A stretch of 64,000 nt of DNA from Mustelus asterias. Lineage: Eukaryota. The number at the start of each line of letters is the position of its first letter. Position 1 is the stretch's first letter. Both the position numbers and the translations under genes were made by a program. The stretch spans positions 49,538,001-49,602,000 of the forward strand of contig NC_135823.1 in NCBI RefSeq assembly GCF_964213995.1, given 5' to 3'. Shown here in pieces: positions 22,174 to 52,700 of the stretch. The notes beneath the pieces are model-generated. The model saw only the letters and a program-made list of their open reading frames with translations. It searched no databases and had not been told where the DNA came from.

Positions 22174-22710
22174 AGCACTGTGGCTGGAAAAACAATCCCA
22201 TCGTCTGATTGAGTATCGAAGGAAGAGTGATCCTGAACTGCTGTCCTTTAATTTGCAGTACTGTACAAAGTGACACTTTAAAAATGTACATAGTCTTCAT
22301 AATAAAAAGTTTTAAAATGCAAATAACATTCCCCAGCCATGGAAACAATCTGTTTTATTTGTTTTTGCTTCAATAACATACAACTTCCATAGTTATCTTC
22401 TCTATTTTGAGGAAACTATTACAGTCCATAAAGTAACAGTCAAACATCTGAGAGAAAGCATGTTCTATTAACACCCTTATAAATAATTCCATCCTTAACA
22501 TTGAAAAAAAACTGAGGTTCTCACTACAATTCCATTTCAGACATTAGCTTGGATTACATCCAGTGAAATGTAATAAAAATACAACTTAGAAGCACAGAGC
22601 CAGTGTTAACGCAGTATGGAAACATCCATAGAGATACCCATACTTCTTAAAAAGTGCTCACTTCGCCACCAAAAATCCACAAGAGTTCTATCCTGCATGA
22701 AAAATAGACA

Positions 22711-22850
22711 TGATGTGGAGATGCCGGCGTTGGACTGGGGTAAACACAGTAAGAAGTTTAACAACACCAGGTTAAAGTCCCAACAGGTTTACCAACAGGT
22801 AAAGTCCAAACCTGTTGGACTTTAATCTGGTGTTGTTAAACTTCTTACTG
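22711..22850 (-). mobile_element. 140-bp Penelope-derived hairpin insertion
   Basis: Same tail and pLTR end as 50341-50423; TSD TGAAAAATAGACA at 22698 and 22851. Confidence 0.85.
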
Positions 22851-23179
22851 TGAAAAATAGACACCACAGCACTCCCAGCCCCACTCCCCACCTTTGCCAT
22901 TGTGGAAAGTAAATTAACCTGGTAGCTGCATTATTTCCTATGCTGTCTTTGACATGACATCTCTTTTTTTTCAGTGTGTGTTCCTCAAAGTTGCAACAGC
23001 TTTGCAAATTCTCTGTACTGTATATTGGATGCATCGTTTAACAGTGCAGCCTTCCCATGTTAATATAAACCCTTCAAGGAAACAAGATGGTGTCCCTCGT
23101 CATAATGCCACTGCAGCAACACATCAGAGGCTGAATGGTCTCCTTGCAGAGTTCTTGGGTCAGTTTTCTGACTGCTCCC

Positions 23180-23327
23180 TTAGTGCTTGGCCACCTTAGA
23201 TAATCCCATGATTTTGAAGGTAATCCCTGCGATCCTCTCGTAGATCAGAAACATAAGAGCGGCAGTAAAAACCGTCTGAAGTAACTTGGCTTCAAGACCC
23301 TTGTAGAGCCCTGAGAAACCACCTTTC
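23180..23327 (-). CDS. SLC25A17: SLC25A17 exon 9 (last coding)
   Basis: [31 protein letters not shown]...AKH*. Confidence 0.92.
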
Positions 23328-29300: not shown

Positions 29301-32300
29301 TGTAAAAGGCATCACATGGTGAACATCACCTGACAGAATAATAAGCTGTTAAAAGATCAGCACTCTTTAATAAGATAAGCCTAGATAAGCACAAGGGAGA
29401 AAGGAAGGGAACTATATGTGTGGTGGAGAGTCCAGCAGGGAGCAGTCGGGCCCAATGGCCTGCTTTAGTGCTGTGGATTATGTAATACTCACAAGCCTTC
29501 CTCTTTCACAATTTCTGCCAGTATCACAGGTGTGGAGCGGGATTTGCGTTTTTCATCAACTAAAGCAAATTCAGGCCAAAACGAGAGGGGTTAGAAACCA
29601 GCAGCACCACAGACAAGTAGACGCTCTATCTATCAGAATGTGGAAGCGTTTGGACCCACGTAGATATTTCAGAAGTAAATCTCCAGAAAACTACACACAT
29701 TTCAGTTAAAATAAATCAATTTGTCCTTTGCTGCCTGCTGTGAATGTTATTGTTTGTGCACCCTGCTGTCTATAGTTAGTGATCCCAGTCCAACGCCAGC
29801 ATCTCCACATTATAGTTAGTGACACATAAAAGATAACCTGGGAATTGATTAAAATACTCCACTGTCCTCCCAATGAGTTTCAAATGTATCCTACGCTTCA
29901 CCCCTACTCTCCAGTCTTCATACAGGCTGTTCAATGAGCAATTCATCTATGAGAACTGCACAGTGTAAAAACAAATAAAAGATTAAACACCGTTCCATTT
30001 AAACATTATCAAGTGACTATTATTACGCGATATACATTACTGGCCAAAAATGGGTGTATATTGACTTCAAAGTTTGGACAAATGTGTTTAATTTCTTTGC
30101 TCTTACTAGAATACCTCCCGTCCTATAGTCAATCTGGTGCAGACTACACCATTGAGTAAACTCAGTAAATATGCCTAAGCAGCTACATCAATGCATCGTC
30201 GAGTGTCTGAGGTTTCTCTTTAGTGGCAGAATATTTATTTATCCTGGTTTGACAGCCAAACTTTTCCAGACAGAGCTGTCGGAGGGAAATCAAGGACTCA
30301 GAGTTCTGTTATCCAAACAGATGGTCAAGACCAGAACTCATTTGTTTAGAAAACGACAGCTGGTTCACATCTTGGGGAGGGGAAAACATAAGATCGGAAG
30401 GGCTGAAGGGCCTTCTTCATCCAAAGCAATCTTATGGTCATGAAATAAAGGAAAGAAATGGAATGTTGCAAAACAGTAGTCGAGTTTGGACTGAATTCAT
30501 TTTTCATTAGTGAAATTAGAGGACCATTAAAGAATAACTATCACAGAGTCAGTAACATTCTAGACATAAGCGACTGAAAGGTTGGGAATTTGTTGATCTT
30601 AAATCTGTTCTACTAACCTACAAATACATCTCAAGATCCTTATTTATGTTCAAACATGTACATGGCTTACTTTTACTTAAAGTTTATTAGTCACAAGTAG
30701 GCTTACATTAACATTGTAATTAAGTTACTGTGAAAATCCCCTAGTTGCCACACTCCAGCGCCTGTTCGGGTACACTGAGGGAGGCTTTAGCATGTGGGAG
30801 GAAACTGGAGCTCCCGGAGGAAACCCACGCAGACACGGGAAGAATGTGCAAACTCCACACAGACAGTGACCCAAGCCGGGAATTGAATCCGGGTCCCTGG
30901 CGCTGTGAGGCAGCAATGCTAACCACTGTGCCACCATATTGAAATACCAGCGGTCATCTCAGTGACCTCCTTCCAGCCCCATGTCCCTATTTACTAACCT
31001 GCACTCATCCCACCACAACCCAGCCCTCAGGAATACCCAGTCAAAATCTGGGAATCACTTCCCCAAAGGGGGAAAAGGGTTGGGGGGGGGGGGGGGGGGG
31101 GGGGCGGGGGAAGGGGATAGATGAATTATTTTTGTTCAGTAATCTTATTTAGGGTTTCAAAACAAAGACAGGTAAACACAGTTAAGATACAGATCAACCA
31201 TGATCTAGCTAAATGGCTAACTAGGCTCGAAGGGCTGAATGGTCTCATCTGCCTGTTTGGCCTAGCCACTAATCTCCCTCTACCGTGGTGTCCGTTTTAC
31301 TCTCAAAAATCGATACAACTCTGGAGCATCCCAACACAGTCAGGGCTACTTAAAACATGAGCTGTTGGATGAATTATAAATAATGGTTATTCGATATACT
31401 TTAATCAAAAATTATTTCAATAATGAATAAACTCATGACAAAAAAAAATCCAAATTGCCACAACATAGGGGCAATTTGCTTTGTAATTCTATGCAGTGAT
31501 TGGGGGCTGTAAATAGTGTATTTTACTGCACAAATTTTAAGTTCACGATAAACTGGATGTTGTGTGTTTCAATTCCTACCTTGAAGTCTGATCCTTGCGG
31601 TGTCCAAAGGGAAAAATGTTGTTGTGGCAGTCACACTACCCTGCAGAGAGAATAAAAAACATTGGGGGAACAAAAGTGTTAAACTGTACTTTCCAAATGG
31701 GTCATGTAAGAGAACAGGGAATGCGGACATATGAATCACTACAGTGCAGAAGGAGGCCATTCGGCCCATCAAGCCTGCACTGATCACAATCCTACCCAGG
31801 CCCTATTCCCATAACCCCACATATTTCTCCTGCTAATCCCCTGACACTAGGGTCAATTTAGCATGGCCAATCAACCTAACCCGCACATCCTTGCACTGTG
31901 GGAGGAAACCGGAGCATCCGCAGAAAACCCACATATTCCTCTCTCTTGCTCAAGGACACTGGCCTGGCTCAACTAATTCCAAACCATTACCATTAAATCA
32001 TTGGGAGAATGTCCCATCTGTTTGGTTTCAGCTGATTTTTGAGGATTAACCAGTCACACCCTGGGATCCACAGGCTGAACTGAAATTTAGAACTGGTGCA
32101 GGATCAAACCATATTTTAAAATCGACATTGCCCTCATGTAAACTACAGAGTTGCACAAGCATGTTATTGACAGGTACACATAAACAGGAGGGGGGAGGGG
32201 GGCGGGGGGGAATGGGTGGGGGGGGCTGGGGGGGGGAATTGGGGGGGCGGGGGGGAATTGGGGGGGCGGGGGGGAATGGGGGGGGCGGAGGGGAATGGGG

Positions 32301-35300
32301 GGGGCGGGGGGGAATGGGGGGGGCGGGGGGGAATGGGGGGGGCGGGGGGAATGGGGGGGGCGGGGGGGAATGGGGGGGGCGGGGGGGAATGGGGGGGGCG
32401 GGGGGGAAATGGGGGGGGCGGGGGGGGAATGGGGGGGGCGGGGGGGGAATGGGGGGGGCGGAGGGGGAATGGGGGGGGCGGGGGGGGAATGGGGGGGCGG
32501 GGGGGGAATGGGGGGGCGGGGGGGGAATGGGGGGGGCGGGGGGGGAATGGGGGGGGCGGGGGGGGGAATGGGGGGGGCGGGGGGGAATGGGGGGGGCGGG
32601 GGGGAATGGGGGGGGGCGGGGGGGGAATGGGGGGGGCGGGGGGGGAATGGGGGGGGCGGGGGGGGAATGGGGGGCGGGGGGGGAATGGGGGGCGGGGGGG
32701 GAATGGGGAGGCGGGGGGAATTGGGGGAGGCGGGGGGGATGGGGGGGCGGGGGGGGATGGGGGGGCGGGGGGGGATGGGGGGGCGGGGGGGGATGGGGGG
32801 GCGGGGGGGGATGGGGGGGCGGGGGGGGATTGGGGGGCGGGGGTGATTGGGGGGCGGGGGGGATTGGGGGGCGGGGGGGATTGGGGGGCGGGGGGGGATT
32901 GGGGGGCGGGGGGGGATTGGGGGGCGGGGGGGGATTGGGGGGCGGGGGGGGATTGGGGGGCGGGGGGGATTGGGGGGCGGGGGGATTGGGGGGCGGGGGG
33001 GATTGGGGGGCGGGGGGGATTGGGGGGCGGGGGGGATTGGGGGGCGGGGGGGATTGGGGGGCGGGGGGGATTGGGGGGCGGGGGGGATTGGGGGGATTGG
33101 GGGGGCGGGGGGGATTGGGGGGGCCGGGGGGGATTGGGGGGGCGGGGGGGGATTGGGGGGGGCGGGGGGGGATTGGGGGGGGCGGGGGGGATTGGGGGGG
33201 GCGGGGGGGGATTGGGAGGGGCGGGGGGGGATTGGGGGGGGCGGGGGGGGATTGGGGGGGGCGGGGGGGGATTGGGGGGGGCGGGGGGGGGATTGGGGGG
33301 GGCGGGGGGGATTGGGGGGGCGGGGGGGATTGGGGGGGGCGGGGGGGGATTGGGGGGGCGGGGGGGGATTGGGGGGGGCGGGGGGGGATTGGGGGGGCGG
33401 GGGTGTATTGGGGGGGCGGGGGGGGGATTGCGGGGGGGTATTGGGGGGGCGGGGGGGGATTGGGGGGGGGATTGGGGGGGCGGGGGGGGATTGGGGGGGC
33501 GGGGGGGGATTGGGGGGGCAGGGGGGGATTGGGGGGGCGGGGGGGGTTGGGGGGGCGGGGGGGGGTTGGGAGGGGAGGGGGGGGTTGGGGGGGCGGGGGG
33601 ATTGGGGGGGCGGGGGGAATGGGGGGGCGGGGGGAATTGGGGGGGGCGGGGGGAATGGGGGGATTGGGGGGGGCGGGGGGGAATTGGGGGGGGCGGGGGG
33701 GAATTGGGGGGGACGGGGGGGAATTGGGGGGGGCGGGGGGGGAATTGGGGGGGCGGGGTGGGAATTGGGGGGGGCGGGGTGGGAATTGGGGGGGGCGGGG
33801 GGGGAATTGGGGGGGGCGGGGGGGGAATTGGGGGGGGCGGGGGGGGGAATTGGGGGGGGCGGGGGGGGAATTGGGGGGGGCGGGGGGGAATTGGGGGGGG
33901 CGGGGGGGAATTGGGGGGGGCGGGGGGAATTGGGGGGGCGGGGGGGGAATTGGGGGGGGCGGGGGGGAATTGGGATGGGCGGGGTGGAATTGGGGGGGCG
34001 GGGGGGGAATTGGGGGGGGCGGGGGGGAATTGGGGGGGCGGGGGGGAATTGGGGGGGGCGGGGGGGGAATTGGGGGAGGCGGGGGGGGGAATTGGGGGGG
34101 GCGGGGGGAAGGGAGGGAATTGGGGGGGCGGGGGGGAATTGGGCGGGCGGGGGGGGTGGGGGGGAATTGGGGAGGCGGGGAGGAATTGGGGGGGGCGGGG
34201 GGGAATTGGGGGGGCGGGGGGGAATTGGGGGGGCGGGGGGGAATTGGGGGGGCGGGGGGGAATTGGGGGGGCGGGGGGGAATGGGGGGGCGGGGGGGAAT
34301 GGGGGGGCGGGGGGGAATGGGGGGGGCGGGGGGGAATGGGGGGGCGGGGGGGAATTCGGAGGGCGTGGGGGTGTGAGTGGGAGGGGGAAGTGGCGGGGGG
34401 GCGGGGGGTCGAGGGGGGGCGGGAGGGGGAGGGAAGGGGAGACGGAAGGGGCGGGAGGGGGGACGGAGGGGGCGGGAGGGGGAGACGGAGGGGGCGGGAG
34501 GGGGAGACGGAGGGGGCGGGAGGGGGAGACGGAGGGGGCGGGAGGGGGAGACGGAGGGGGCGGGAGGGGGAGACGGAGGGGGCGGGAGGGGGAGACGGAG
34601 GGGGCGGGAGGGGGAGACGGAGGGGGCGGGAGGGGGAGACGGAGGGGGCGGGAGGGGGAGACGCAGGAGGCGGGAGGGGAGACGAAGGGGGCGGGAGGGG
34701 GAGACGGAGGGGGCGGGAGGGGGAGACGGAGGGGGCGGGAGGGGGAGACGGTGGGGGCGGGAGGGGGGGGAGGGGATGGGGCGGGAGGGGGAGACGGAGG
34801 GGGCGGGAGGGGGAGACGGAGGGGGCGGGAGGGGGAGACGGAGGGGGTGGGAGGGGGAGACGGAGGGGGCGGGAGGGGGAGACGGAGGGGGCGGGAGGGG
34901 GAGACGGAGGGGGCGGGAGGGGGAGACGGAGGGGGCGGGGGGGGGAGACGGAGGGGGCGGGAGGGGGAGACGGAGGGGGCGGGGGGGGGAGACGGAGGGG
35001 GCGGGAGGGGGAGACGGAGGGGGCGGGAGGGGGAGACGGAGGGGGCGGGAGGGGGAGACGGAGGGGGCGGGAGGGGGAGACGGAGGGGGCGGGAGGGGGA
35101 GACGGAGGGGGCGGGAGGGGGAGACGGAGGGGGCGGGAGGGGGAGACGGAGGGGACGGGAGGGGGAGACGGAGGGGACGGGAGGGGGAGACGGAGGGGAC
35201 GGGAGGGGGAGACGGAGGGGGCGGGAGGGGGAGACGGAGGAGGCGGGAGGGGGAGACGGAGGGGGCGGGAGGGGGAGACGGAGGGGGCGGGAGGGGGAGA

Positions 35301-38226
35301 CAGAGGGGGCGGGAGACGGAGGGGGCGGGTGGCGGGTGCGCGGGCGGGGGGAGTGGGGGGTGAAGTGGCGGGGGAGTGGGGTGTGAAGTGGCGGGGGGTG
35401 GGGGTTGAAGGGGCGGGGTGGTGGGGGGTGAAGGGGCGGTGGGGTGGGGGGTGAAGGGGCGGGGGGTGGAGGGGTGAAGGGTGTGGGAGGTGAAGGGGCG
35501 GGGGGGTGGGGGGTGAAGGGGCGGGAGGGTGGGGGGTGAAGTGGCGGGGGGTGGGGGGTGAAGGGGCGGGGGGGTGGGGGTGAAGGGGCGGGGGGCTGTG
35601 GGGTGAAGGGGCAGGGGGGTGGGGGGTGAAGGGGCAGGGGGGTGAAGGGGCAGGGGGGTGGGGGGTGAGGGGGCGGGGAGGTGGGGGGGTTAAAAGGGCG
35701 GGGAGGTGGGGGGTGAAGGGGCAGGGGGGTGGTTGGGTGAAGGGGCGGGGGGTGGGGTGGCAAAGGGGCGGGGTGAAGGGGCGGGGGCGGGGGTGAAGGG
35801 GCGGGGAGGGGTGAAGGGGCGGGGAGGGGGGTGAAGGGGCGGAGGGGAGGGGGGTGAAGGGGCGGTGGGGAGAGGGGTGAAGGGGCGGAGGGGAGGGGGG
35901 TGAAGGGGCGGAGGGGAGGGGGGTGAAGGGGCGGGGGGGAGGGGGGTGAAGGGGCGGGGGGGAGGGGGGTGAAGGGGCGGGGGGGAGGGGGGTGAAGGGG
36001 CGGGGGGGAGGGGGGTGAAGGGGCGGGGGGGAGGGGGGTGAAGGGGCGGGGGGGAGGGGGGTGAAGGGGCGGGGGGGAAGGGGGTGAAGGGGCGGGGGGG
36101 AGGGGGGTGAAGGGGCGGGGGGGAGGGGGGTGAAGGGGCGGGGGGGAGGGGGGTGAAGGGGCGGGGGGGAGGGGGGTGAAGGGGCGGGGGGGAGGGGGGT
36201 GAAGGGGCAGGGGGGTGGGGGGGTGAAGGGGCGGTGGGTGGGGCGGTGAAGGGGCGGGGGGGAAGGGGCGGGGGAGGGGGTGAAGGGGCGTGGGGGAGGG
36301 GGGTTAAGGAGGGGGGTGAAGGGGTGGGGGGGAGGGGGGTGAAGGGGCGGGGGGGAGAGGGGTGAAGGGGCGGGGGGGAGGGGGGTGAAGGGGCGGGGGG
36401 GAGGGGGGTGAAGGGGCGGGGGGAGGGGGGGTGAAGGGGCGGGGGGGAGGGGGGTGAAGGGGCGGGGGGAGGGGGGGTGAAGGGGCGGGGGGAGGGGGGG
36501 TGAAGGGGCGGGGGGAGGGGGGGTGAAGGGGCGGGGGGAGGGGGGGTGAAGGGGAGGGTGGAGGGGGGTGAAGGGGAGGGTGGAGGGGGGTGAAGGGGCG
36601 GGGGAGGGGAGGTGAAGGGGCGGGGGGGAGGGGAGGTGAAGGAGCGGGGGGGAGGGGGGTGAAGGGAGGGGGTGAAGGGGCGGGGTGGAGGGGGGTGAAG
36701 GGGGAGGGGGGAGGGGGGGTGAAGGGGCGGGCGGAGGGGGGTGAAGGGGCGGGGGGGAGGGGGGTGAAGGGGCAAGGGGAGGGGGTGAAGTGCGGGGCGA
36801 GTGGGGGTAAAGTGCGGGGCGAGTGGGGGTGAAAGGGCGGGGGAGGCGGCGTGAAGGGGCGGGGGGAGGGGGGGTGAAGGGGCGGGGGGAGGGGGCGTGA
36901 AGGGGCGGGGGAGGGGGCGTGAAGGGGCGGGGGAGGGGGGGTGAAGGGGCGTGGGGGTGAAGGGGCGGGGGGGAGGGGGGTGAAGGGGTGGGGGGAGGGG
37001 GGGGGAGGAGCGGGGGGGAGGGGGGGTGAAGGGGCGGGGGACGGGGGGTGAATGGGTGGGGGGTGAAGGGGCGGGGGAGGGGGGGTGAAGGGGCGGGGGA
37101 GGGGGGGTGAAGGGGCGGGGGAGGGGGGGTGAAGGGGCGGGGGAGGGGGGTGCAGTGGCGGAGGGGGGTGCAGGGGCGGGGGCTGGGGAGCGGGCGGGGG
37201 CTGGGGAGCGGGCGGGTGGGGGCAGGGGAGCGGGCGGGGTAAGGGAGCGGGCGGATGCAGGGGAGCGAGCGGGGGCGGGGGAGCGGGCGGGGGAGCGGGC
37301 GGGGGAGCGGGCGGGGGAGGGGAGCGGGCGGAATCGGGGGAGCGAGCGGGAGGGGGCGGGGAGGGGGTGGGGAGGGGGCGGGGAGGGGCGGGGAGGGGGC
37401 GGGGAGGGGCGGGGAGGGGGCGGGGAGCGAGCGGGAGGGGGTGGGGAGGGGGCGCGGGAGGGGGTGGGGAGGGGGCGCGGGAGGGGGTGGGGAGGGGGCG
37501 CGGGAGGGGGTGGGGAGGGGGTGGGGAGGGGGCGCGGGAGGGGGTGGGGAGGGGGCGCGGGAGGGGGTGGGGAGGGGGCGCGGGAGGGGGCGCGGGCGGG
37601 GGCGCTAGCGGGGGCGCTAGCGGGGGCGGGGGCGCTGGCGGGGGCGGGGGCTGGGGTGGGGGCGCGGGCGGGGGCGGGGGCGCGGGCGGGGGCGCTGGCG
37701 CGGGCGGGGGCGCTGGCGGGGGCGGGGGCGCTGGCGGGGGCGGNNNNNNNNNNNNNNNNNNNNNNNNNNNNNNNNNNNNNNNNNNNNNNNNNNNNNNNNN
37801 NNNNNNNNNNNNNNNNNNNNNNNNNNNNNNNNNNNNNNNNNNNNNNNNNNNNNNNNNNNNNNNNNNNNNNNNNNNNNNNNNNNNNNNNNNNNNNNNNNNN
37901 GCGCCAGGGTGAGTGAAGCTGCTGAGTGTTTGTTCCGGGACCCCCCGCTCCCGAGTTGCAGCAGCTTCTCCGGGGCTGGTTTGTGAGCCGCTCCGCTCGG
38001 AATCTGCCTTTAATCTCTGGGACCTCCCGGCAGATCCCACAGCACATTTCCGCATTGTCAAAGCCAGTGTGAGAGTCACTGTGTCCAAACTGAACAGCAG
38101 CCGCTGCCGCCTGGGCTCAGGGTCAGCCCCGGGTAAACTCACACCCGCCCCACTTACCACAACCCCGGCCACAGCGTGGACAAGAGTCTCATAGGAGGCG
38201 AGGGGGGAGCTGCCAGAGGCCTTCAT
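23180..38226 (-). CDS. SLC25A17: Peroxisomal carrier PMP34 (SLC25A17 or SLC25A17-like), complement(join(23180..23327,23478..23557,23640..23735,23938..24083,26683..26799,27857..28011,29493..29559,31580..31640,38158..38226)), 312 aa
   Basis: Nine GT-AG exons in frame (939 nt). Matches PMP34: [75 protein letters not shown]. Confidence 0.92.
23478..23557 (-). CDS. SLC25A17: SLC25A17 exon 8
   Basis: [26 protein letters not shown]; AG/GT flanks; phase fits exon 9. Confidence 0.85.
23640..23735 (-). CDS. SLC25A17: SLC25A17 exon 7
   Basis: [32 protein letters not shown]. Confidence 0.92.
23938..24083 (-). CDS. SLC25A17: SLC25A17 exon 6
   Basis: [18 protein letters not shown]...[14 protein letters not shown]. 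Confidence 0.92.
25645..25956 (-). mobile_element. HE1-like V-SINE (tail A)
   Basis: Same family consensus. Confidence 0.8.
26683..26799 (-). CDS. SLC25A17: SLC25A17 exon 5
   Basis: [28 protein letters not shown]...YKGIL; 117 nt. Confidence 0.93.
26820..27080 (-). mobile_element. V-SINE (tail B)
   Basis: Same family; its tail ends ~20 nt from the SLC25A17 exon 5 acceptor. Confidence 0.8.
27857..28011 (-). CDS. SLC25A17: SLC25A17 exon 4
   Basis: [29 protein letters not shown]...KDLLMACIA. Confidence 0.93.
28260..29077 (-). mobile_element. Two adjacent HE1-like V-SINEs (28260-28604, 28633-29077; the second has a duplicated head)
   Basis: Family consensus occurs twice. Confidence 0.85.
29493..29559 (-). 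CDS. SLC25A17: SLC25A17 exon 3
   Basis: [23 protein letters not shown]; 67 nt; donor gtgagt. Confidence 0.92.
29783..29810 (+). mobile_element. 28-bp Penelope tail-only insertion
   Basis: tcccagtccaacgccagcatctccacat flanked by the 12-bp direct repeat TATAGTTAGTGA (29771, 29811). Confidence 0.8.
30678..30936 (-). mobile_element. V-SINE (tail B)
   Basis: Family consensus. Confidence 0.8.
31580..31640 (-). CDS. SLC25A17: SLC25A17 exon 2
   Basis: [20 protein letters not shown]; 61 nt; AG/GT flanks. Confidence 0.92.
31733..31935 (-). mobile_element. 5'-truncated HE1-like V-SINE
   Basis: 3' half of the family consensus. Confidence 0.75.
32188..37743. repeat. G-rich compound minisatellite in SLC25A17 intron 1
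   Basis: Successive unit types: G(n)AATG(n)C, G(n)ATTG(n)C, GGAGACGGAGGGGGCGGGAG, GGTGAAGGGGCG(n)AG, GGGGAGCGGGC and GGGGCGCGGGAG. Confidence 0.95.
37744..37900. other. Assembly gap (157 N)
   Basis: N run. Confidence 1.
38158..38226 (-). CDS. SLC25A17: SLC25A17 coding exon 1
   Basis: [23 protein letters not shown], then donor gtaagt. Confidence 0.88.
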
Positions 38227-38295
38227 TGTTCCAGCAAAGCGAAAGGCAGATTGTTCACCAAGTGCCTGAGAGCAGAGACTTCCCCCAGCAGCGGC

Positions 38296-38495
38296 NNNNN
38301 NNNNNNNNNNNNNNNNNNNNNNNNNNNNNNNNNNNNNNNNNNNNNNNNNNNNNNNNNNNNNNNNNNNNNNNNNNNNNNNNNNNNNNNNNNNNNNNNNNNN
38401 NNNNNNNNNNNNNNNNNNNNNNNNNNNNNNNNNNNNNNNNNNNNNNNNNNNNNNNNNNNNNNNNNNNNNNNNNNNNNNNNNNNNNNNNNNNNNNN
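38296..38495. other. Assembly gap (200 N), probably spurious
   Basis: Identical 26-mer on both sides (38270-38295, 38496-38521). Confidence 0.95.
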
Positions 38496-38578
38496 GAGCA
38501 GAGACTTCCCCCAGCAGCGGCTCCTCCCCCCGCACAGCAACGGGGAATACTCAGCAACTCCCCCCGAGCAAAAACCAC

Positions 38579-41500
38579 ACCCCCCCTCCCCCAGTACAGC
38601 CCCCCCCCTCCCCCAGTACAGCCCCCCCTCCCCCAGTACAGCCCCCCTCCCCCAGTACAGCCCCCTCCCCCAGTACAGCCCCCCCTCCCCCAGTACAGCC
38701 CCCCCTCCCCCCAGTACAGCCCCCCCCTCCCCCAGTACAGCCCCCCCCTCCCCCAGTACAGCCCCCCCCTCCCCCAGTACAGCCCCCCCCTCCCCCAGTA
38801 CAGCCCCCCCCTCCCCAGTACAGCCTCCCCCAGTTACAGCCCCCCCTCCCCCAGTACAGCCCCCCCCTCCCCCAGTACAGCCCCCCCCCTCCCCCAGTAC
38901 AGCCCCCCCCTCCCCCAGTACAGCCCCCCTCCCCCAGTACAGCCCCCCCTCCCCAGTACAGCCCCCCCCCTCCCCCAGTACAGCCCCCCCCTCCCCAGTA
39001 CAGCCCCCCCCTCCCCCAGTACAGCCCCCCCCTCCCCAGTACAGCCCCCCCTCCCCCAGTCAGCCCCCTCCCCCAGTACAGCCCCCCCTCTCCCCCAGTA
39101 CAGCCCCCCCCTCCCCCAGTACAGCCCCCCCCTCCCCCAGTACAGCCCCCCCTCCCCCAGTACAGCCCCCCCCCTCCCCCAGTACAGCCCCCCCCTCCCC
39201 CAGTACAGCCCCCCCCTCCCCCAGTACAGCCCCCCCCCTCCCCCAGTACAGCCCCCCCCTCCCCCAGTACAGCCCCCCCCTCCCCAGTACAGCCCCCCCC
39301 CTCCCCCAGTACAGCCCCCCCTCCCCCAGTACAGCCCCCCCCTCCCCCAGTACAGCCCCCCCCCTCCCCCAGTACAGCCCCCCCCTCCCCCAGTACAGCC
39401 CCCCCCCTCCCCCAGTACAGCCCCCCCCCTCCCCCAGTACAGCCCCCCCTCCCACAGTACAGCCCCCCCTCCCCCAGTACAGCCCCCCCCTCCCCCAGTA
39501 CAGCCCCCCCCTCCCCCAGTACAGCCCCCCCCTCCCCCAGTACAGCCCCCCCCTCCCCCAGTACAGCCCCCCCCTCCCCCAGTACAGCCCCCCCCCTCCC
39601 CCAGTACAGCCCCCCCTCCCCCAGTACAGCCCCCCCCTCCCCCAGTACAGCCCCCCCCTCCCCCAGTACAGCCCCCCCCTCCCCCAGTACAGCCCCCCCC
39701 TCCCCCAGTACAGCCCCCCCCTCCCCCAGTACAGCCCCCCCCCTCCCCCAGTACAGCCCCCCCCCTCCCCCAGTACAGCCCCCCCTCCCCCAGTACAGCC
39801 CCCCCCCCTCCCCCAGTACAGCCCCCCCCTCCCCCAGTACAGCCCCCCCCTCCCCCAGTACAGCCCCCCCCTCCCCCAGTACAGCCCCCCCCCTCCCCCA
39901 GTACAGCCCCCCCCCTCCCCCAGTACAGCCCCCCCCCTCCCCCAGTACAGCCCCCCCCCTCCCCCAGTACAGCCCCCCCCTCCCCCAGTACAGCCCCCCC
40001 CCTCCCCCAGTACAGCCCCCCCCTCCCCCAGTACAGCCCCCCCCCTCCCCCAGTACAGCCCCCCCCCTCCCCCAGTACAGCCCCCCCCTCCCCCAGTACA
40101 GCCCCCCCCCTCCCCCAGTACAGCCCCCCCCCTCCCCCCAGTACAGCCCCCCCCCTCCCCCAGTACAGCCCCCCCCCTCCCCCAGTACAGCCCCCCCCCT
40201 CCCCCAGTACAGCCCCCCCCCTCCCCCAGTACAGCCCCCCCCCCTCCCCCAGTACAGCCCCCCCCCTCCCCCAGTACAGCCCCCCCCCTCCCCCAGTACA
40301 GCCCCCCCCTCCCCCAGTACAGCCCCCCCCCTCCCCCAGTACAGCCCCCCCCCTCCCCCAGTACAGCCCCCCCCCTCCCCCAGTACAGCCCCCCCCCCTC
40401 CCCCAGTACAGCCCCCCCCTCCCCCAGTACAGCCCCCCCCCTCCCCCAGTACAGCCCCCCCCCTCCCCCAGTACAGCCCCCCCCCTCCCCCAGTACAGCC
40501 CCCCCCCTCCCCCAGTACAGCCCCCCCCTCCCCCAGTACAGCCCCCCCCCTCCCCCAGTACAGCCCCCCCCTCCCCCAGTACAGCCCCCCCCCTCCCCCA
40601 GTACAGCCCCCCCCCTCCCCCAGTACAGCCCCCCCCTCCCCCAGTACAGCCCCCCCCTCCCCCAGTACAGCCCCCCCCTCCCCCAGTACAGCCCCCCCCT
40701 CCCCCAGTACAGCCCCCCCCCTCCCCCAGTACAGCCCCCCCTCCCCCAGTACAGCCCCCCCTCCCTCCCCCAGTACAGCCCCCCCCTCCCCTCCCCAGTA
40801 CAGCCCCCCCCTCCCCTCCCAGTACAGCCCCCCCCTCCCCTCCCCCAGTACAGCCCCCCCCTCCCTCCCCCAGTACAGGCCCCCCCCTCCCCTCCCCCAG
40901 TACAGCCCCCCCCTCCCCTCCCCCAGTACAGCCCCTCCCCTCCCCCAGTACAGCCCCCCCCTCCCCTCCCCAGTACAGCCCCTCCCCTCCCCCAGTACAG
41001 CCCCCCCCCCTCCCCCAGTACAGCCCCCCCCCCTCCCCCAGTACACCCCCCCTCCCCCAGTACAGCCCCCCCCCTCCCCCAGTACAGCCCCCCCCCCTCC
41101 CCCAGTACAGCCCCCCCCTCCCCCAGTACAGCCCCCCCTCCCCCAGTACAGCCCCCCCCTCCCCCAGTACAGCCCCCCCCTCCCCCAGTACAGCCCCCCC
41201 CCTCCCCCAGTACAGCCCCCCCCCCTCCCCCAGTACAGCCCCCCCCCTCCCCCAGTACAGCCCCCCCCTCCCCCAGTACAGCCCCCCCCTCCCCCAGTAC
41301 AGCCCCCCCCTCCCCCAGTACAGCCCCCCCCCTCCCCCAGTACAGCCCCCCCCCTCCCCCAGTACAGCCCCCCCCCCCTCCCCCAGTACAGCCCCCCCCC
41401 TCCCCCAGTACAGCCCCCCCCTCCCCCAGTACAGCCCCCCCCTCCCCCAGTACAGCCCCCCCCCTCCCCAGTACAGCCCCCCCCTCCCCCAGTACAGCCC

Positions 41501-43740
41501 CCCCCTCCCCCAGTACAGCCCCCCCCTCCCCCAGTACAGCCCCCCCCCTCCCCCAGTACAGCCCCCCCCCCTCCCCCAGTACAGCCCCCCCCTCCCCCAG
41601 TACAGCCCCCCCCTCCCCCAGTACAGCCCCCCCCCTCCCCCAGTACAGCCCCCCCCTCCCCCAGTACAGCCCCCCCCTCCCCCAGTACAGCCCCCCCCCC
41701 TCCCCCAGTACAGCCCCCCCCCTCCCCCAGTACAGCCCCCCCCCTCCCCCAGTACAGCCCCCCCCTCCCCCAGTACAGCCCCCCCCCTCCCCCAGTACAG
41801 CCCCCCCCTCCCCCAGTACAGCCCCCCCCTCCCCCAGTACAGCCCCCCCCTCCCCCAGTACAGCCCCCCCCTCCCCCAGTACAGCCCCCCCCCTCCCCCA
41901 GTACAGCCCCCCCCTCCCCCAGTACAGCCCCCCCCTCCCCCAGTACAGCCCCCCCCCTCCCCAGTACAGCCCCCCCCTCCCCCAGTACACCCCCCCCCTC
42001 CCCCAGTACAGCCCCCCCCCTCCCCAGTACAGCCCCCCCCCTCCCCCAGTACAGCCCCCCCCTCCCCCAGTACAGCCCCCCCCCTCCCCCAGTACAGCCC
42101 CCCCCCTCCCCCAGTACAGCCCCCCCCTCCCCCAGTACAGCCCCCCCCTCCCCCAGTACAGCCCCCCCCCTCCCCCAGTACAGCCCCCCTCCCCCAGTAC
42201 AGCCCCCCCCCTCCCCCAGTACAGCCCCCCCCCCTCCCCCAGTACAGCCCCCCCCCTCCCCCAGTACAGCCCCCCCCCTCCCCCAGTACAGCCCCCCCCC
42301 TCCCCCAGTACAGCCCCCCCCCTCCCCCAGTACAGCCCCCCCCCTCCCCCAGTACAGCCCCCCCCTCCCCCAGTACAGCCCCCCCCCCTCCCCCAGTACA
42401 GCCCCCCCCTCCCCCAGTACAGCCCCCCCTCCCCCAGTACAGCCCCCCGCCTCCCCCAGTACAGCCCCCCCCTCCCCCAGTACAGCCCCCCCCCTCCCCC
42501 AGTACAGCCCCCCCCCTCCCCCAGTACAGCCCCCCCCTCCCCCAGTACAGCCCCCCCCCTCCCCCAGTACAGCCCCCCCCTCCCCCAGTACAGCCCCCCC
42601 CCTCCCCCAGTACAGCCCCCCCCTCCCCCAGTACAGCCCCCCCCCTCCCCCAGTACAGCCCCCCCCTCCCCCAGTACAGCCCCCCCCCTCCCCCAGTACA
42701 GCCCCCCCCCTCCCCCAGTACAGCCCCCCCCCTCCCCCAGTACAGCCCCCCCCCTCCCCCAGTACAGCCCCCCCCCTCCCCCAGTACAGCCCCCCCCCTC
42801 CCCCCAGTACAGCCCCCCTCTCCCTCCCCCAGTACAGCCCCCCTCTCCCTCCCCCAGTACAGCCCCCCTCTCCCTCCCCCAGTACAGCCCCCCTCTCCCT
42901 CCCCCAGTACAGCCCCCCTCTCCCTCCCCCAGTACAGCCCCCCTCTCCCTCCCCCAGTACAGCCCCCTCTCCCTCCCCCAGTACAGCCCCCCTCTCCCCT
43001 CCCCCAGTACAGCCCCCCTCTCCCTCCCCCAGTACAGCCCCCCTCTCCCTCCCCCAGTACAGCCCCCCTCTCCCTCCCCCAGTACAGCCCCCCTCTCCCT
43101 CCCCCAGTACAGCCCCCCTCTCCCTCCCCAGTACAGCCCCCCTCTCCCTCCCCCAGTACAGCCCCCCTCTCCCTCCCCCAGTACAGCCCCCCTCTCCCTC
43201 CCCCAGTACAGCCCCCTCTCCCTCCCCCAGTACAGCCCCCCTCTCCCCTCCCCCAGTACAGCCCCCCTCTCCCTCCCCCAGTACAGCCCCCCTCTCCCTC
43301 CCCCAGTACAGCCCCCCTCTCCCTCCCCCAGTACAGCCCCCCTCTCCCTCCCCCAGTACAGCCCCCCTCTCCCTCCCCCAGTACAGCCCCCCTCTCCCTC
43401 CCCCAGTACAGCCCCCCTCTCCCTCCCCCAGTACAGCCCCCCTCTCCCTCCCCAGTACAGCCCCCCTCTCCCTCCCCAGTACAGCCCCCCTCTCCCTCCC
43501 CCAGTACAGCCCCCCTCTCCCTCCCCCAGTACAGCCCCCTCCCCAGTACAGCCCCCCTCTCCCTCCCCCAGTACAGGCCCCCTCTCCCTCCCCCAGTACA
43601 GGCCCCTCCCCAGTATAGCCCCCTCCCCAGTATAGCCCCCTCCCCCAGTACAGCCCCCCCTCCCCCAGTACAGCCCCCCCTCCCCAGTACACCCCCCCTC
43701 CCCCTCCCCCTCCCCCAGTACAGCCCCCTCCCCCACCCCC
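38579..43740. repeat. C-rich ~20-21 bp minisatellite (CCCCAGTACAGC(n)T), roughly 250 copies
   Basis: Near-invariant AGTACAG core with variable C runs; a CTCTCCCT sub-variant from ~42815. Confidence 0.95.
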
Positions 43741-46633: not shown

Positions 46634-46797
46634 ATGACTGACAGGTACCACAAGGCAGCCAGGGATGGCTACCTGGGTCCCCTTAAGGAGGCCACCAGGA
46701 GAGACCTCAACAATCCGGATGAGGATGGGATGACCCCGACCCTTTGGGCGGCGTATCACGGGCATCTGGAGGGCCTTCAGCTCATCTGTAGTAGAGG
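46634..46797 (+). CDS. ANKS4B: ANKS4B exon 1
   Basis: [55 protein letters not shown]; 164 nt; donor gtgagt. Confidence 0.9.
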
Positions 46798-49700
46798 GTG
46801 AGTGTCACAGCCTGACTCTTCGTGTTTTTTTGTTTCTTGTCAAGTGATAAATGGCTTCTGACACGTCAGCTGTTTCAGAAGGAGCAAAACACGCTCCGAA
46901 GACTTGGGCACATTAATCCTGATTGAGCAGTACTGAGGGAGTTCTGCACTGCCCGAGGTGCTGTCTTATAGATGAAACTGAGGCCTTCTCAGGTGGATGT
47001 AAAAGATCTGAAAAGAGCAGGGTAGTTCTCCCTGGTGTTCTGTCCAATATTTATTCCTCAACCAACCTAGAATCATAGAATCCCTACAGTGCAGAAGGAG
47101 GCCATTCAGCCAATTGTGCGGAATTTTCCGGTCCCGCTCACGACAGGAATTGTAGCGGGCGGGACACGGACCATCCAAACGTCCGTTGACCTTGGGCAGG
47201 ATTTTCCGATCTTGGGGCGAGCATGACCGGAAAATCCTGCCCATTGAGTCTCCACCAACTCCGACAGAGCATCTTACCCAGGCCCTAACCCCCATAACCC
47301 CACATATTAACCTCACTAATCCCTCTACACGTCTTGGGACACTAAGGGGCAATTTAGCATGGCCATTCCACCTAACCTGCACATCTTTGGACTGTGGGAG
47401 GAAATTGGAGCACCTGGAGGAAACCCACGCAGACACGGGGAGAACATGCAGACCCCACACTGACAGTCACCGGAGGCCAGATTGAACCAGGGTTCCTGGC
47501 GCTATGAGGCAGCGGTGAAAACCACTGTGCCACCCTTATTAGTGACATCACAAAAACCTTCCATTTGTCGTCCTTTGTTCTCAGTCGAGGACTCCCCCGC
47601 CGTGGTCGACAGGGCTCTCAACTGCGTCAGGGCCATTTCCCGCATTTCTGCCCTCACTCTTTCCCCTCCCTCCCAGAACCACAGGAGAGTTCCCTTGTCC
47701 TCACTTTCCATTTCCCCAATCTCTGTATTCAATACAGATTCTCCCCCGTCGACTCCAGCATGATACCTCCACCAAACTCATCATCCCCTTCCCTACCCTG
47801 TCAGCATTCTGAAGTCTCACAACACCAGGTTAAAGTCCAACAGGTTTATTTGGTAGCAAAAGAATAGTGAATAGAACTCCCACTCACCCGACAAAGGGGC
47901 AGCGCTCCGAAAGCTAGTGGCTTTTGCTACCAAATAAACCTGTTGGACTTTAACCTGGTGTTGTGAGACTTCTTACTGTGTTTACCCCAGTCCAACGCCG
48001 GCATCTCCACAGCATTCTGAAGGGCCTTTCCCTCCACGACACCCTGGTCCACTCCTCCGCAATGCCTCATCTTCTCTCAGCACTTTTCCAGGCAATCGCA
48101 GGAGGTGAAATACCTGCCCATTTACCCCATCCCTCCTCACCGTCCAAGGCCCCACATACTCCTTCCAGGTGAAGCAGAGATGTACTTGCACTTCTTCCTA
48201 TTTAGCATTCATTGCTCACAATGCAGTCGCCTCTACTCTGGGGAGACTAAGTGCAGACTGGGTGACCTCTTTGCAGAACACCTTCACACAATCCACAAGA
48301 CCCTGACCTTCCTGCTTTTTGCCATTTCAGCTCACCATCTAACTCTCACGCTTCTGTCCTTGGCTTGCTGCAATGTAAGAAGTTTAACAACACCAGGTTA
48401 AAGTCCAACAGGTTTATTTGGTAGCAAAAGCCACACAAACTTTCGGAGCTCCAAGCCCCTTCTTCAGGTGAGTGGGAATTATGTTCACAAACAGGGCATA
48501 TAAAGACACAGACTCAATTTACATGAATAAGGGTTGGAATGCGAATACTTACAGCTAATCAAGTCTTTAAGAAACAAACAACGTGAGTGGAGAGAGCATC
48601 AAGACAGGCTATAAAGATGTGTATTGTCTCCAGACAAGACAGCCAGTGAAACTCTGCAGATCCAGGCAAACTGTGGGGGTTACAAATAGTGTGACATGAA
48701 CCCAATATCCCGGTTGAGGCCATCCTCGTGTGTGCGGAACTTGGCTATCAGTTTCTGCTCAGCGACTCTGCGCCGTCGTGTGTCGCGAAGGCCGCCTTGG
48801 AGAACGCTTACCCGAATATCAGAGGCCGAATGCCCGTGACCGCTGAAGTGCTCCCCAACAGGAAGAGAACAGTCTTGCCTGGTGATTGTCGAGCGGTGTT
48901 CATTCATCCGTTGTCGCAGCGTCTGCATAGTTTCCCCAATGTACCATGCCTCGGGACACCCTTTCCTGCAGCGTATCAGGTAGACAACGTTGGCCGAGTT
49001 GCAAGAGTATGTACCGTGTACCTGGTGGATGGTGTTCTCACGTGAGATGATGGCATCTGTGTCGATGATCCGGCACGTCTTGCAGAGGTTGCTGTGGCAG
49101 GGTTGTGTGGTGTCGTGGTCACTGTTCTCCTGAAGGCTGGGTAGTTTGCTGCGGACAATGGGCTGTTTGAGGTTGTGCGGTTGTTTGAAGGCAAGAAGTG
49201 GGGATGTGGGGATGGCCTTGGCGAGATGTTCGTCTTCATCAATGACATGTTGAAGGCTCCGGAGGAGATGCCGTAGCTTCTCCACTCCGGGGAAGTACTG
49301 GACGACGAAGGGTACTCTGTCCACTGTGTCCCGTGTTTGTCTTCTGAGGAGGTCGGTGCGGTTTTTCGTTGTGGCGCGTTGGAACTGTTGATCGATGAGT
49401 CGAGCGCCATATCCTGTTCTTATGAGGGCATCTTTCAGCGTCTGGAGGTGTCTGTTGCGATCCTCCTCATCCGAGCAGATCCTGTGTATAAGGAGGGCTT
49501 GTCCGTAGGGGATGGCTTCTTTAACGTGTTTAGGGTGGAAGCTGGAGAAGTGGAGCATCGTGAGGTTATCCGTGGGCTTGCGGTACAGTGAGGTGCTGAG
49601 GTGACCGTCCTTAATGGAGATGCGTGTGTCCAAGAATGCAACCGATTCCGGAGAGTAGTCTATGGTGAGTCTGATGGTGGGATGGAACTTGTTGATGTCA

Positions 49701-52700
49701 TCATAGAGTTGTTTCAGTGATTGTTCACCATGAGTCCAAAGGAAGAAAATGTCATCTATGTATCTAGTGTATGGCATCGGTTGAAGGTCCCGTGCGGTGA
49801 AGAAGTCTTGTTCGAACCTGTGCATGAAGATGTTGGCATATTGAGGTGCGAATTTGGTCCCCATGGCTGTTCCGTGTGTCTGGATGAAGAACTGGTTGTT
49901 GAAGGTGAAGATATTGTGGTCCAGGATGAAGCGGATGAGATGTAAAATTGCATCTGGAAATTGGCAGTTGTTGGCGCTGAGCACTGAGGCCGTTGCAGCA
50001 ATGCCAGAAACTGATAGCCAAGTTCTGCACACACGAGGACGGCCTCAACCAGGATATTGGGTTCATGTCACACTATTTGTAACCCCCAGTTTGCCTGGAC
50101 CTGCAGAGTTTCACTGGCTGTCTTGTCTGGAGACAATACACATCTTTTTAGCCTGTCTTGATGCTCTCTCCACTCACGTTGTTTGTTTCTTAAAGACTTG
50201 ATTAGTTGTAAGTATTCGCATTCCAACCATTATTCATGTAAATTGAGTCTGTGTCTTTATATGCCCTGTTTGTGAACAGAATTCCTACTCACCTGAAGAA
50301 GGGGCTTGGAGCTCCGAAAGTTTGTGTGGCTTTTGCTACCAAATAAACCTGTTGGACTTTAACCTGGTGTTGTTAAACTTCTTACTGTGTTTACCCCAGT
50401 CCAACGCCGGCATCTCCACATCATTGCTGCAATGTTCCAGTGAAGCTCAACACAATATTACCTCATGGGCACTTTATAGCCTTCTGGACTCAACATTGAG
50501 TTAATCAACTATACACTATGTAATCAGTCCTCCATTTAATTCTTTTTCCCCAAAAACTGCCAGTTTGTAACAAGTCCTCATGTTTTTGCGTTCGGACAGA
50601 GCTAATGGTTATTCTGCTATTCACACCTACTCTGGATCGAATCTTTGTGTCTTTAATTCTATCATTACCACTCCATTTGCCGTTGGTTCCTTGACAACTT
50701 TGGCATTTAGTCACCTCTACCCTCTGGCTAAACCTATCCCTTTTGCTCCACCTGTTCCTCTACCCCTTTTCAACAATGCAAAAACCCGTCGCATTCCTGC
50801 CTCACTTGAGTTCGGAAGAAGTCATATTGGACTCAATATGTTAACCCTCTTTCTCTCTCCACAGATACTGCCAGACCTGCTGAGTTTTTCCAACACACTC
50901 TTGTTTTTATTTCAGATCTCCTGCATCCGCAGTATTTTGCTTTTATCACAAAAAAATTGCCTGGGTCATTATGTCATTGTTTGTGGGATCTTGCTGTGCA
51001 CAAATTGGCTGCCAAGTTTACTATTTTAACACCAGTGACCACACTTCAATAATAATCCTGGAAAATTGGCTGGAAAATGTTTGGGACATCTGGAAATTAT
51101 GGAAAAGCTCTATGTCAATGCAAGCCTTTAAATTTACACAACAGTTGAATCGTTGTTAAATATTTGCATGTTGTATCGTTGCCTTTATTGGTTGGGAAGT
51201 AAGTATTGTAAATGTGTTTTGAAATGATGGAGATTGAGAAAACTGCTACAGGTTGTTCAGGCTCTAAGTTGACAAGTTTTCCCCGAATCCTGTGTCATTT
51301 GGGGCAAAGACACAGACATAAAAATCAAAGATGGATCTGAATTAATGTAAAATGGATATTTCTGAATTAAGCAGTAGGTCAGTTTGTAGAAAGAAGTTAT
51401 GTCTTAATATTTCAAAGGGGTGTGTCCCTCATCAACCTGAATTGATGCTACAACCCCTGGTCTTAAAGTCATGGTTCAGTATTATCTGCCAGCATTATTG
51501 ATGGTAGTAACTGTAAATAGATACAGGTTATTGCCCGTCACTGTCAATGCATGGAAAGCTCACTGGGGTTCAAAGTGCACAAGCACTCCAGTCACACCCT
51601 GGGAGAAAGAAGAAACAACATATTTTCATTTTTATCACACGGTCAACCACAACCTCAGGTAATGAAGTAATTTATAAAGTGTAGTCACTGTTGTAATGTA
51701 TGGATCACAGCAGCTAAATTACACACAGCAAGCTCCCACAAAGAGCAACATGGTAATAACTAGCTAATAATGACCACTACTGTTTCAGTCATATTGTTTG
51801 AGGGGTAAATATTGGCCAGACAACAGGAAGAACTCCCCTGTTCTTCTTTGAATCATAGAATCCTACAGTGCAGAAGGAGGCCATTCGGCCCATCGAGTCT
51901 GCACCAACCACAATCCCACTCAGGTCCTATCCCCATGACCCAGGCATTTACCCTAGCTAGTCCGCCTGACACTAAGGGGCGATTTAGTATAGCCAATCCA
52001 CCTAACCCGCATATCTTTGGACTGTGGTAGGAAACTGGAGCACCCGGAGGAAACCCACGCAGACACGGGGCGAAAGTGCAAACTCCACACAGACAGTGAC
52101 CCGAGGCCGGGAGTCGAACCCGGGTCCCTGGCACTGTGAGGCCACTGTGAGGCAGCAGTGCTGGCCACCGTGCCGCCCCAATCATTTACGTCCACCTAAG
52201 AAAACAGACAGGGCCTTGATTTAACATCTCATCTGAAGGACCAGCACCGCTGACAGTGCAGCACTCCCTCAGTACTGCAATGTCAGCTTGAATTTAAGCA
52301 TTCGGATCTCTGGGGTAGAATGTGAACCCACAATGTTTGCCAAAAGCTTTAATTAGTGGGCACAGTCTGTCCCACAAGTTGTTAAAAGTGTTAAATGTGT
52401 CTGGTAGATTGGTTATTCATTGTCTTGCTCAGTTTGACTCTTGCCTAGACTCCAGTCCCAGTCTGAACTGAGCAAGCTGGTCTTTGGTAACTTTGATCTA
52501 CTGGGGAACTGGTGAAGCTACTGGTGGCTTCAGAGCCCGTGAGGAGGAGGAAATCAGCTTGTTTTCTGCTTCTGCTCCACTAAATCTTTCTGGTGGCAAA
52601 TTAGTGCAGATCACAAGTTAGTTCAAGCCTGGCCATTATGGCTTCATGATCTGTGCTTGTTGAGGGTGAACTTGGCATTAGTTTTGCGAATCGTGACATA

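Follow-up and report, generated by a model that had tools for sequence, protein, structure and literature searches.

A Penelope-like retrotransposon of Mustelus asterias with a preferred spaced palindromic target and probable reverse transcription from both ends of a staggered cut

How do Penelope-like elements (PLEs) come by their inverted ends and one-sided tail? The origin of both is stated as open for this sister group of telomerase (PMC8557442), and the question is raised again by four insertions in a 64,000-nucleotide (nt) stretch of the Mustelus asterias genome (NC_135823.1, positions 49,538,001-49,602,000 of the forward strand, GCF_964213995.1), which is referred to below as the window. 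A preliminary description had noted that these insertions, of 28, 140, 195 and 2047 bp, share a tail, and had attributed each of them to two cDNAs primed from opposite sides of a staggered cut of ~12-13 nt. Its cut and its two cDNAs are retained here; what it missed is that the target is palindromic and that the two arms are coupled. The insertions are truncated copies of a Penelope-like retrotransposon of the Neptune/Nematis type. Its usual target is a spaced palindrome, (C)TG-N16/17-CA(G), and, to judge by its copies in the genome, it likely reverse-transcribes its RNA from both ends of the cut.

The four insertions lie where they had been placed, base for base, with the sizes given and with exact direct repeats of 13 (140 bp), 12 (28 bp), 13 (195 bp) and 12 nt (2047 bp) at their two sides (Table 1). 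The 26-nt tail, searched for with up to three mismatches, has four matches in the window and none in 100 shuffles; the 28-bp copy carries it with one mismatch. In the three larger insertions (140, 195 and 2047 bp) the inverted, tail-less arm overlaps the target-site duplication (TSD) by 2, 4 and 2 nt, as had been claimed, and the tail end also overlaps it, by 2, 2 and 1 nt, which had gone unrecorded.

Each of the four events is a true insertion. An empty site with a single TSD copy, which had been proposed as a check, was found for every one, contigs of relatives supplying it for the 28- and 140-bp events and host-repeat paralogues for the 195- and 2047-bp ones. At the 140-bp site a contig of run X1 joins position 22697 directly to 22851, a skip of 153 that is the sum of 140 and 13, and a contig of run X11 also bridges the site without the insert. 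The 28-bp site is spanned by a contig of run X7 that has a single TSD copy and no tail, skipping 38 positions with 3 other letters between, which puts it 5 nt off a perfect empty site; bridging by run X6 is uninformative there and the contigs of run X1 end at the TSD. The 195- and 2047-bp sites each have one TSD copy and flanks in register in 12 of 19 host-repeat paralogues (with a constant 1-nt offset for the former and a gap of 0 for the latter), the remaining paralogues aligning poorly on one flank.

The target and the two start sites

A genome search with a 25-nt pattern of the tail gave 68,355 exact matches, and its reversed control gave none; the family has at least 68,355 copies. As an unbiased sample we took the first 100 tail matches on contig C1 (its first 4.4 Mb; exact-tail copies only). 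TSDs flank 75 of them (16 of these TSDs were chosen by inspection of the output). The TSD-flanked copies measure 58-3820 bp, with a median of 275, and 66 of them consist of a tailed arm and an inverted tail-less arm, the other nine being tail-only. The consistent TSD length on which the preliminary description had staked its case is found: 10-14 nt in 68 of the 75, and 12-13 nt in 42.

In the rebuilt targets the duplicated sequence is preceded by TG at a distance of 4 nt and followed by CA at 2 nt. TG-N16-CA brackets 56 of 95 TSD sites and TG-N17-CA another 24 of 95 (other spacings: 2-13), and where the TSD is an exact 12 nt both half-sites occupy their exact positions in 22 of 27, against a background of 7.5% for TG and 7.9% for CA. 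The combined motif, TG-N16/17-CA, is present at 56 of the 75 unbiased sites and at 18 of 21 held-out sites, as compared with 11% of random places. At motif-defined sites the core is 12 nt long in 45 of 57 and 13 nt in 12 of 57, with the duplication centred between the half-sites, as befits a 12-13-nt staggered cut. Three of the four window sites fit the motif; the 195-bp site does so in its left half alone. A spaced target of such symmetry suggests two symmetric nicks leaving 12-13-nt 3' overhangs, likely by a dimeric nuclease acting on a palindromic site. Five separate insertions (L001, L024, L027, L110 and L204) apparently share one position of one host repeat, with similar flanks and different arms, which is consistent with a host repeat carrying the target motif.

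Where the motif fixes the cut, clean tail ends fall at offsets 0 to +5 in 49 of 55 copies, with a range of 0 to +12, at the ATG of the element's open reading frame (ORF), and clean tail-less arms start at -30 to -39 in 39 of 40. The tail end had been described as fixed, in opposition to internal priming at the other end. It is fixed approximately: among the four window copies the last base of the native continuation differs, and the opposition itself lapses, the tail end being an internal start site too, spread over that range at the start codon. Copies in which the tail runs on into this ATG account for 853 exact genome matches (L110 is an example); the tail end thus lies inside a partial-tandem RNA, as it does in Adineta (PMC3846280).

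Microhomology between the target and the native continuation of the element averages 1.38 nt at the tail end (n=55) and 1.33 nt at the tail-less end (n=40). With permuted targets the values are 0.46 and 0.48, and the observed ones were reached in 0 of 10,000 permutations. (The 57 motif-defined sites enter this test, the 38 of 95 without an unambiguous motif being left out; the counts are not drawn from the unbiased set alone.) Microhomology is nil at 15 of 55 tail ends and 11 of 40 tail-less ends, or ~27% at either. Pairing of 1-4 nt helps at both ends and is required at neither, and with enrichment equal at the two ends microhomology is no special mark of the tail-less, internally primed end, as had been supposed. 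Single-sequence folds of the tail region are no better than those of shuffles (z -0.37 to 0.25), and no claim is therefore made that the start sites sit on a stem-loop. A near-invariant 8-nt inverted match (about -69 to -62 with -22 to -15 of the pseudo-long terminal repeat, or pLTR; ~50351-50405 of the window) has the -35 start site between its halves; two of three folds show it paired, and a recurrent short insertion described below has its junction there.

Priming from both ends or fold-back

The two arms were mapped in 62 two-armed copies of the sample, four complex ones (#9, #13, #48 and #69) being left out. The tail-less arm reaches more than 15 nt further into the element in 15 pairs and the tailed arm does so in another 15. 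The 2047-bp window copy belongs to the former group, its tail-less arm extending 1251 nt further 5' than its tailed arm; the excess of the tail-less arm is greater than 50 nt in 9 of the 62 and as much as 2774 nt. At two loci from searches aimed at short tailed arms (L045 and L046), tail-less arms of 496 and 299 nt are combined with tailed arms of 28 and 26 nt that they do not overlap. Four two-armed products from such searches are only 29-35 bp long (L172, L181, L179 and L187, with antisense arms of 13, 10, 8 and 6 nt), and either arm can be found alone between TSDs: the tailed arm in the nine sampled copies already referred to and the tail-less arm at L217 and L234, with exact 11-nt TSDs. 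Those last two come from 30 loci read out of 29,060 matches to the tail-less end, among which 15 have tailed partners, 3 have tail remnants and 12, L217 and L234 included, were left unassigned by the script. No pair of two tail-less arms was seen in these 30 copies, and no two-tailed pair among the 62 mapped ones.

For PLEs in general either self-priming or nuclease resolution has been proposed (PMC3846280, PMC2377424, PMC8557442). Self-priming, put forward for PLE inverted repeats in the first of these, would here mean that one cDNA, primed at the tail, folds back, serves as its own template as far as about -35 and is joined to the other DNA end, with any asymmetry of the arms due to later deletion at the centre; in a hybrid version both ends are primed and one cDNA snaps back onto the other, giving the same near-perfect palindromes. 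Identical arms, matched 5' limits and private variants shared between arms (13 in six insertions) are what such a fold-back would produce. A hairpin copied from the tailed cDNA cannot outreach that cDNA, however, so the longer tail-less arms argue against it, and fold-back alone can yield neither non-overlapping arms nor TSD-flanked insertions of the tail-less arm by itself. It also offers no reason why tail-less arms should start sharply at -30 to -39 with a primer-side microhomology equal to that of the tail end. We consider fold-back, the hybrid counted with it, to be quite unlikely. That either arm may be the longer, that arms need not overlap and that each occurs alone speaks instead for priming from both ends of the cut, and the joining of two separately primed cDNAs head to head, which had been suggested from the window, gains support from these features and from the 29-35-bp two-armed products.

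That the tail and the inverted arm reflect nuclease resolution of a branched intermediate, and not two start sites, is very unlikely. The tail is held most likely to come from endonuclease (EN)-mediated resolution (PMC8557442), but the microhomology of the overhangs with the native continuation at both ends points to priming, start sites observed in vitro with the anole element match tail ends (PMC11167929), and on inspection the element sequence at its two ends does not fit the target motif. More remote still, and scarcely credible, is a ready-made palindrome family resembling miniature inverted-repeat transposable elements (MITEs) and copied as a unit from master palindromes. Short palindromes with TSDs at a palindromic target do look like DNA transposon insertions, and their sizes cluster at ~180-290 bp; against this, central junctions are unique (one shared pair of 75), sizes span 28-3820 bp, neither terminus is constant and the arms enter the ORF for reverse transcriptase (RT) and EN. 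Assignment to MITEs or any cut-and-paste transposon was rejected on the variable termini, unique junctions and continuous sizes.

What, then, is the smallest insertion in the window? The 28-bp event consists of one unassigned base and 27 nt of tail at a perfect TG-N16-CA site, and it would represent the tail-side cDNA alone, stopped early and with no visible partner. It had been presented as the minimal product of two cDNAs, which the absence of a second arm makes impossible to demonstrate, although two-armed products hardly longer do exist at other loci, as already noted. The class of micro-insertions that it was taken to represent is real and also rare: insertions below 50 bp number 0 among the 75 unbiased TSD-flanked copies, and 2 of 30 and 6 of 30 in two samples targeted at short tailed arms (30 loci read from each of 592 and 48 genome matches). 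The exact search patterns are blind to shorter or decayed micro-insertions. A form of 51-56 bp, its arms joined over the 8-nt match, recurs at 11 of 30 targeted loci and in 22 exact junctions genome-wide; later deletion could be another origin of it.

One RNA or two, and the course of insertion

The two arms of an insertion are coupled. Their 5' limits lie within 15 nt of each other in 32 of 62 pairs (7.9 expected; rho 0.74), and among long pairs within 30 nt in 6 of 16 (1.3 expected). Both arms belong to the same subfamily in all 49 classifiable pairs (14 of 63 were unclassifiable), and polymorphic sites differ in 6.6% of comparisons within an insertion as against 42% between insertions. In the 2047-bp window copy the arms are 97% alike over 383 nt and have two variants in common that no other copy in the sample has. 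This coupling is best fitted by a single RNA copied twice; two RNAs of one source, or snap-back at joining, are the alternatives.

With two RNA molecules, the cut and the start sites would be the same and each DNA end would copy its own RNA, mostly from one source locus. Dual priming has been proposed for L1 (PMC2837659), strand displacement would be avoided, the few arm pairs that differ at linked polymorphic sites (five sites in insertion #29) would be accounted for, and cis preference or a single active source per cell would make the arms alike. It leaves without account the pairing of one tailed with one tail-less end, neither two tails nor two tail-less arms having been seen together, and the tendency of long arms to stop together. 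We regard two RNAs as the usual template as unlikely.

Central junctions are nearly all unique (again, one shared pair among 75), which speaks for palindromes made at insertion. Of 56 such junctions, 24 have overlaps, 3 are blunt and 29 have inserted bases; 6 of 21 inserts of at least 6 nt match nearby sequence at p <= 0.025. (The references for these calls are other copies, and single calls may be off by a few bases.) Unique junctions that mix overlaps with inserted and sometimes templated bases are what would be expected of error-prone end joining. Two further ideas about where the arms stop found no support. For the putative ribozyme cut (-95/-96) as the main stop the counts are low, with ends at -90 to -99 in 4 of 71 sense arms as compared with 21 of 71 at -110 to -139; and a trailing polymerase catching up with its leader should leave the tailed arm slightly shorter, for which there is no bias (28 versus 31). 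Separately, many copies in which the tail runs into the ORF (L191-L210) start only 10-25 nt upstream of the ATG, and in several the sequence passes from the first codons directly to the 3' pLTR, which may mark the 5' end of the RNA or template jumps within one RNA. Two tandem tail copies 32 nt apart (G000:C1:197180826-197180891) and reiterated short segments at L228 are possible cases of RT re-priming on the same stretch of RNA.

The course of insertion that we favour would be as follows. Two GIY-YIG domains, likely as a dimer, would each nick ~2 nt 5' of CA(G), on opposite strands, leaving the 3' overhangs of 12-13 nt. Each overhang would then prime a cDNA on the element's RNA at one of the two start sites that bracket the tail, with the help of 1-4 bp of pairing but without depending on it. 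Both cDNAs would usually be copied from the same RNA, often to the same 5' limit, and error-prone end joining would unite their two 3' ends head to head, followed by fill-in; failure or early arrest of one priming would leave a single-armed insertion or a micro-insertion. In its most far-reaching form, the proposal is of a retrotransposon that acts like a dimeric restriction enzyme, cutting a bipartite palindrome and using one of two RNA starts at each DNA end, with the copying twice of a single RNA as its normal route and with every insertion made of two first-strand cDNAs head to head, and of this as the way in which PLEs in general come by an inverted pLTR and a one-sided tail. On that wider version we find the balance to be even.

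Several observations weigh against priming of one RNA from both ends of a palindromic cut. The near-perfect palindromes (32 of 62) are also expected from fold-back, and at any single locus later deletion at the palindrome centre could give asymmetry in either direction. Insertions #29, #55 and #71 differ between their arms at 5, 3 and 2 polymorphic sites, and some events may have used two RNAs or have been converted later. If there is one RNA, the trailing polymerase must displace the first cDNA. The full motif is missing from 19 of the 75 unbiased sites, the 195-bp window copy among them, and 25 of the 100 sampled tails have no TSD within the 1.5 or 5 kb fetched. Exact-tail copies from one contig stretch make a sample that favours young copies, and about one-third of the loci anchored at the tail-less end also belong to the tail-anchored set. 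The anole protein PAc prefers AT-rich ATT sites and has starts that are non-homologous to the target (PMC11167929), in which it differs from the family described here. Finally, what we conclude about mechanism is read from finished genomic copies.

The family, its relatives and its surroundings

The 441-codon ORF of the 2047-bp copy is 97% identical to that of a near-full-length copy (L081) with an open frame of 915 codons, a single ORF for RT with a C-terminal GIY-YIG domain. Pfam recognises RVT_1; a Pfam search of the query gave no GIY-YIG match, although the motif VVYLIRC..YIGET is kept in 42 aligned relatives and PF01541 is listed for many homologues. Invariant in all 42 aligned sequences are the CCHH residues (with two C between GIY and YIG), DKG, and the three cysteines of a C-X4-C-xx-C linker that precedes the nuclease; by the criteria of PMC8557442, linker, CCHH and DKG together indicate Neptune or Nematis and not Poseidon. 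The closest named proteins are from sharks, at 84-94% identity, and in a quick tree, built from matches that include no named reference of Neptune or Nematis, the neighbours of the family are a Heptranchias protein and unnamed relatives. No solved relative of the protein was found in PDB by sequence. Further hallmarks of PLEs are present: a pLTR in partial-tandem structure, a tail reading into the ORF start, an inverted copy and a TSD.

A hammerhead-like core motif lies at about -126 to -96 in two subfamilies and fits, by eye, the descriptor of PMC4209133; Rfam finds no hammerhead in 47700-50600 or in the window as a whole. Beside its GAAA both arms of the 2047-bp copy (50320-50323 and 48439-48442) have a common substitution that is in no other sampled copy.

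Much of this layout (inverted pLTR, one-sided tail, TSD) is already published for PLEs, and two-strand cleavage with two starts has already been shown in vitro for another clade. Adineta Pen2/Pen2a (PMC3846280) and Drosophila virilis Penelope (PMC2377424), like PLEs in general (PMC8557442), have an inverted 5'-truncated copy beside the main one and, as EN-bearing PLEs do, a one-sided tail of 30-40 nt running into the ORF start, and a TSD, of 8-10 nt in Adineta (PMC3846280). In the shark family, in contrast, this layout is the main product (66 of the 75 TSD-flanked copies), the spaced palindrome sets the TSD at 12-13 nt, and the copies are numerous enough to permit counts of start sites, of microhomology and of arm coupling. 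With the C-terminally EN-bearing Neptune and Nematis elements it shares the order of RT, CX2-5CxxC linker and GIY-YIG with CCHH; the linker, absent in Penelope and Poseidon, has been tied to a microsatellite bias (PMC8557442), in place of which the target here is TG-N16/17-CA.

The closest biochemical precedent is the anole Poseidon PAc, which in vitro cleaves and extends both strands, with two internal RT starts bracketing the tail and a predicted dimer (PMC11167929). Action on both strands and the bracketing starts would be common to both, and the hammerhead in the PAc pLTR may have a counterpart in the motif recognised here by eye; PAc is of another clade, its starts lie 111-118 nt into the ORF, and in the accessible text of that paper the inverted arm is not derived from two-sided priming and no TSD length is derived. 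L1 twin or dual priming (PMC2837659) is alike in that a second priming from the top-strand 3' overhang generates an inverted segment between TSDs, with microhomology at the outer junctions. There it is a variant route that follows poly(A) priming and leaves an internal deletion between two inverted fragments; here it would be the main route, without poly(A), from starts ~35 nt apart and with arms that usually overlap. An L1-type twin-priming structure was accordingly rejected (there is no poly(A) after the tail, and the arms overlap in most copies), though the process would work like twin priming. A literature search, outside which lay subscription papers, Repbase and the supplementary figures of PMC11167929, brought up neither a PLE target in the form of a spaced palindrome nor an account that derives inverted pLTRs from two-sided priming; the accessible parts of PMC9977147, PMC5718144, PMC12910113 and 10.64898/2026.07.22.740005 add nothing on mechanism.

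Table 1. Parts of the four insertions and associated features, in positions of the window
Feature	Positions	Strand	Remarks
TSD left copy, 13 nt, 140-bp insertion	22698..22710		exact repeat; empty site in run X1
Tailed arm, 81 nt, 140-bp insertion	22711..22791	-	
Junction insert, 16 nt, 140-bp insertion	22792..22807		partly copied from adjoining arm; 9-nt nearby match, shuffle p 0.01
Tail-less arm, 43 nt, 140-bp insertion	22808..22850	+	start at offset -33; 2-nt TSD overlap
TSD right copy, 140-bp insertion	22851..22863		site fits TG-N16-CA
TSD left copy, 12 nt, 28-bp insertion	29771..29782		TG 4 nt before
28-bp tail-only insertion	29783..29810	+	one unassigned base + 27 nt tail; second arm undetectable; absent in run X7
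TSD right copy, 28-bp insertion	29811..29822		CA 2 nt after
TSD left copy, 13 nt, 195-bp insertion	47802..47814		left half-site (CTG) alone fits motif
Tail-less arm, 48 nt, 195-bp insertion	47815..47862	-	4-nt TSD overlap
Tailed arm, 143 nt, 195-bp insertion	47867..48009	+	preceded by 4-nt junction insert
TSD right copy, 195-bp insertion	48010..48022		exact repeat; paralogous empty sites
Older repeat hosting the 195- and 2047-bp insertions	48023..48364	+	72-77% identity to best paralogues
TSD left copy, 12 nt, 2047-bp insertion	48365..48376		fits TG-N16-CA; paralogous empty sites
Tail-less arm, 1630 nt, 2047-bp insertion	48377..50006	-	3' untranslated region/pLTR and 3' half of ORF
5'-truncated ORF, 441 codons	48683..50005	-	RT core (YIDD), thumb, CX4CxxC linker, GIY-YIG nuclease with CCHH
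Tailed arm, 419 nt, 2047-bp insertion	50005..50423	+	2-nt overlap joins other arm
Minimal hammerhead-like motif	50293..50323	+	CUGA-GA core, stem II, GAAA; recognised by eye
TSD right copy, 2047-bp insertion	50424..50435		exact repeat

The older repeat that hosts the two larger insertions has no Pfam match; by eye we take it to be a decayed GIY-YIG-like frame of an older PLE. Elsewhere in the window, an open reading frame of 386 codons (53307-54464, + strand) encodes ankyrin repeats along with a SAM domain and resembles an exon of USH1G/ANKS4B type. A full-length match to the U6atac small nuclear RNA (13620-13744, + strand; 82.9 bits), directly followed by a repeat resembling short interspersed elements, is either a gene or a retrocopy, and long G-rich minisatellite arrays with units of 19-46 nt face a C-rich 21-nt array across two runs of N (32190-43704).

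For annotation, the consequence is that tens of thousands of short palindromes in this genome, down to scraps of ~30 bp, are stubs of one PLE family and not MITEs. The family yields predictions at the level of single bases: a CTG-N16-CAG substrate, the positions of the nicks, two windows for the start of reverse transcription and, for each event, one tailed and one tail-less cDNA. A double-strand cut that is defined by sequence and from which both ends prime would, if true, be of interest for engineering retroelement insertion, and double priming, if true, would explain the long-known back-to-back shape of Penelope-like elements.

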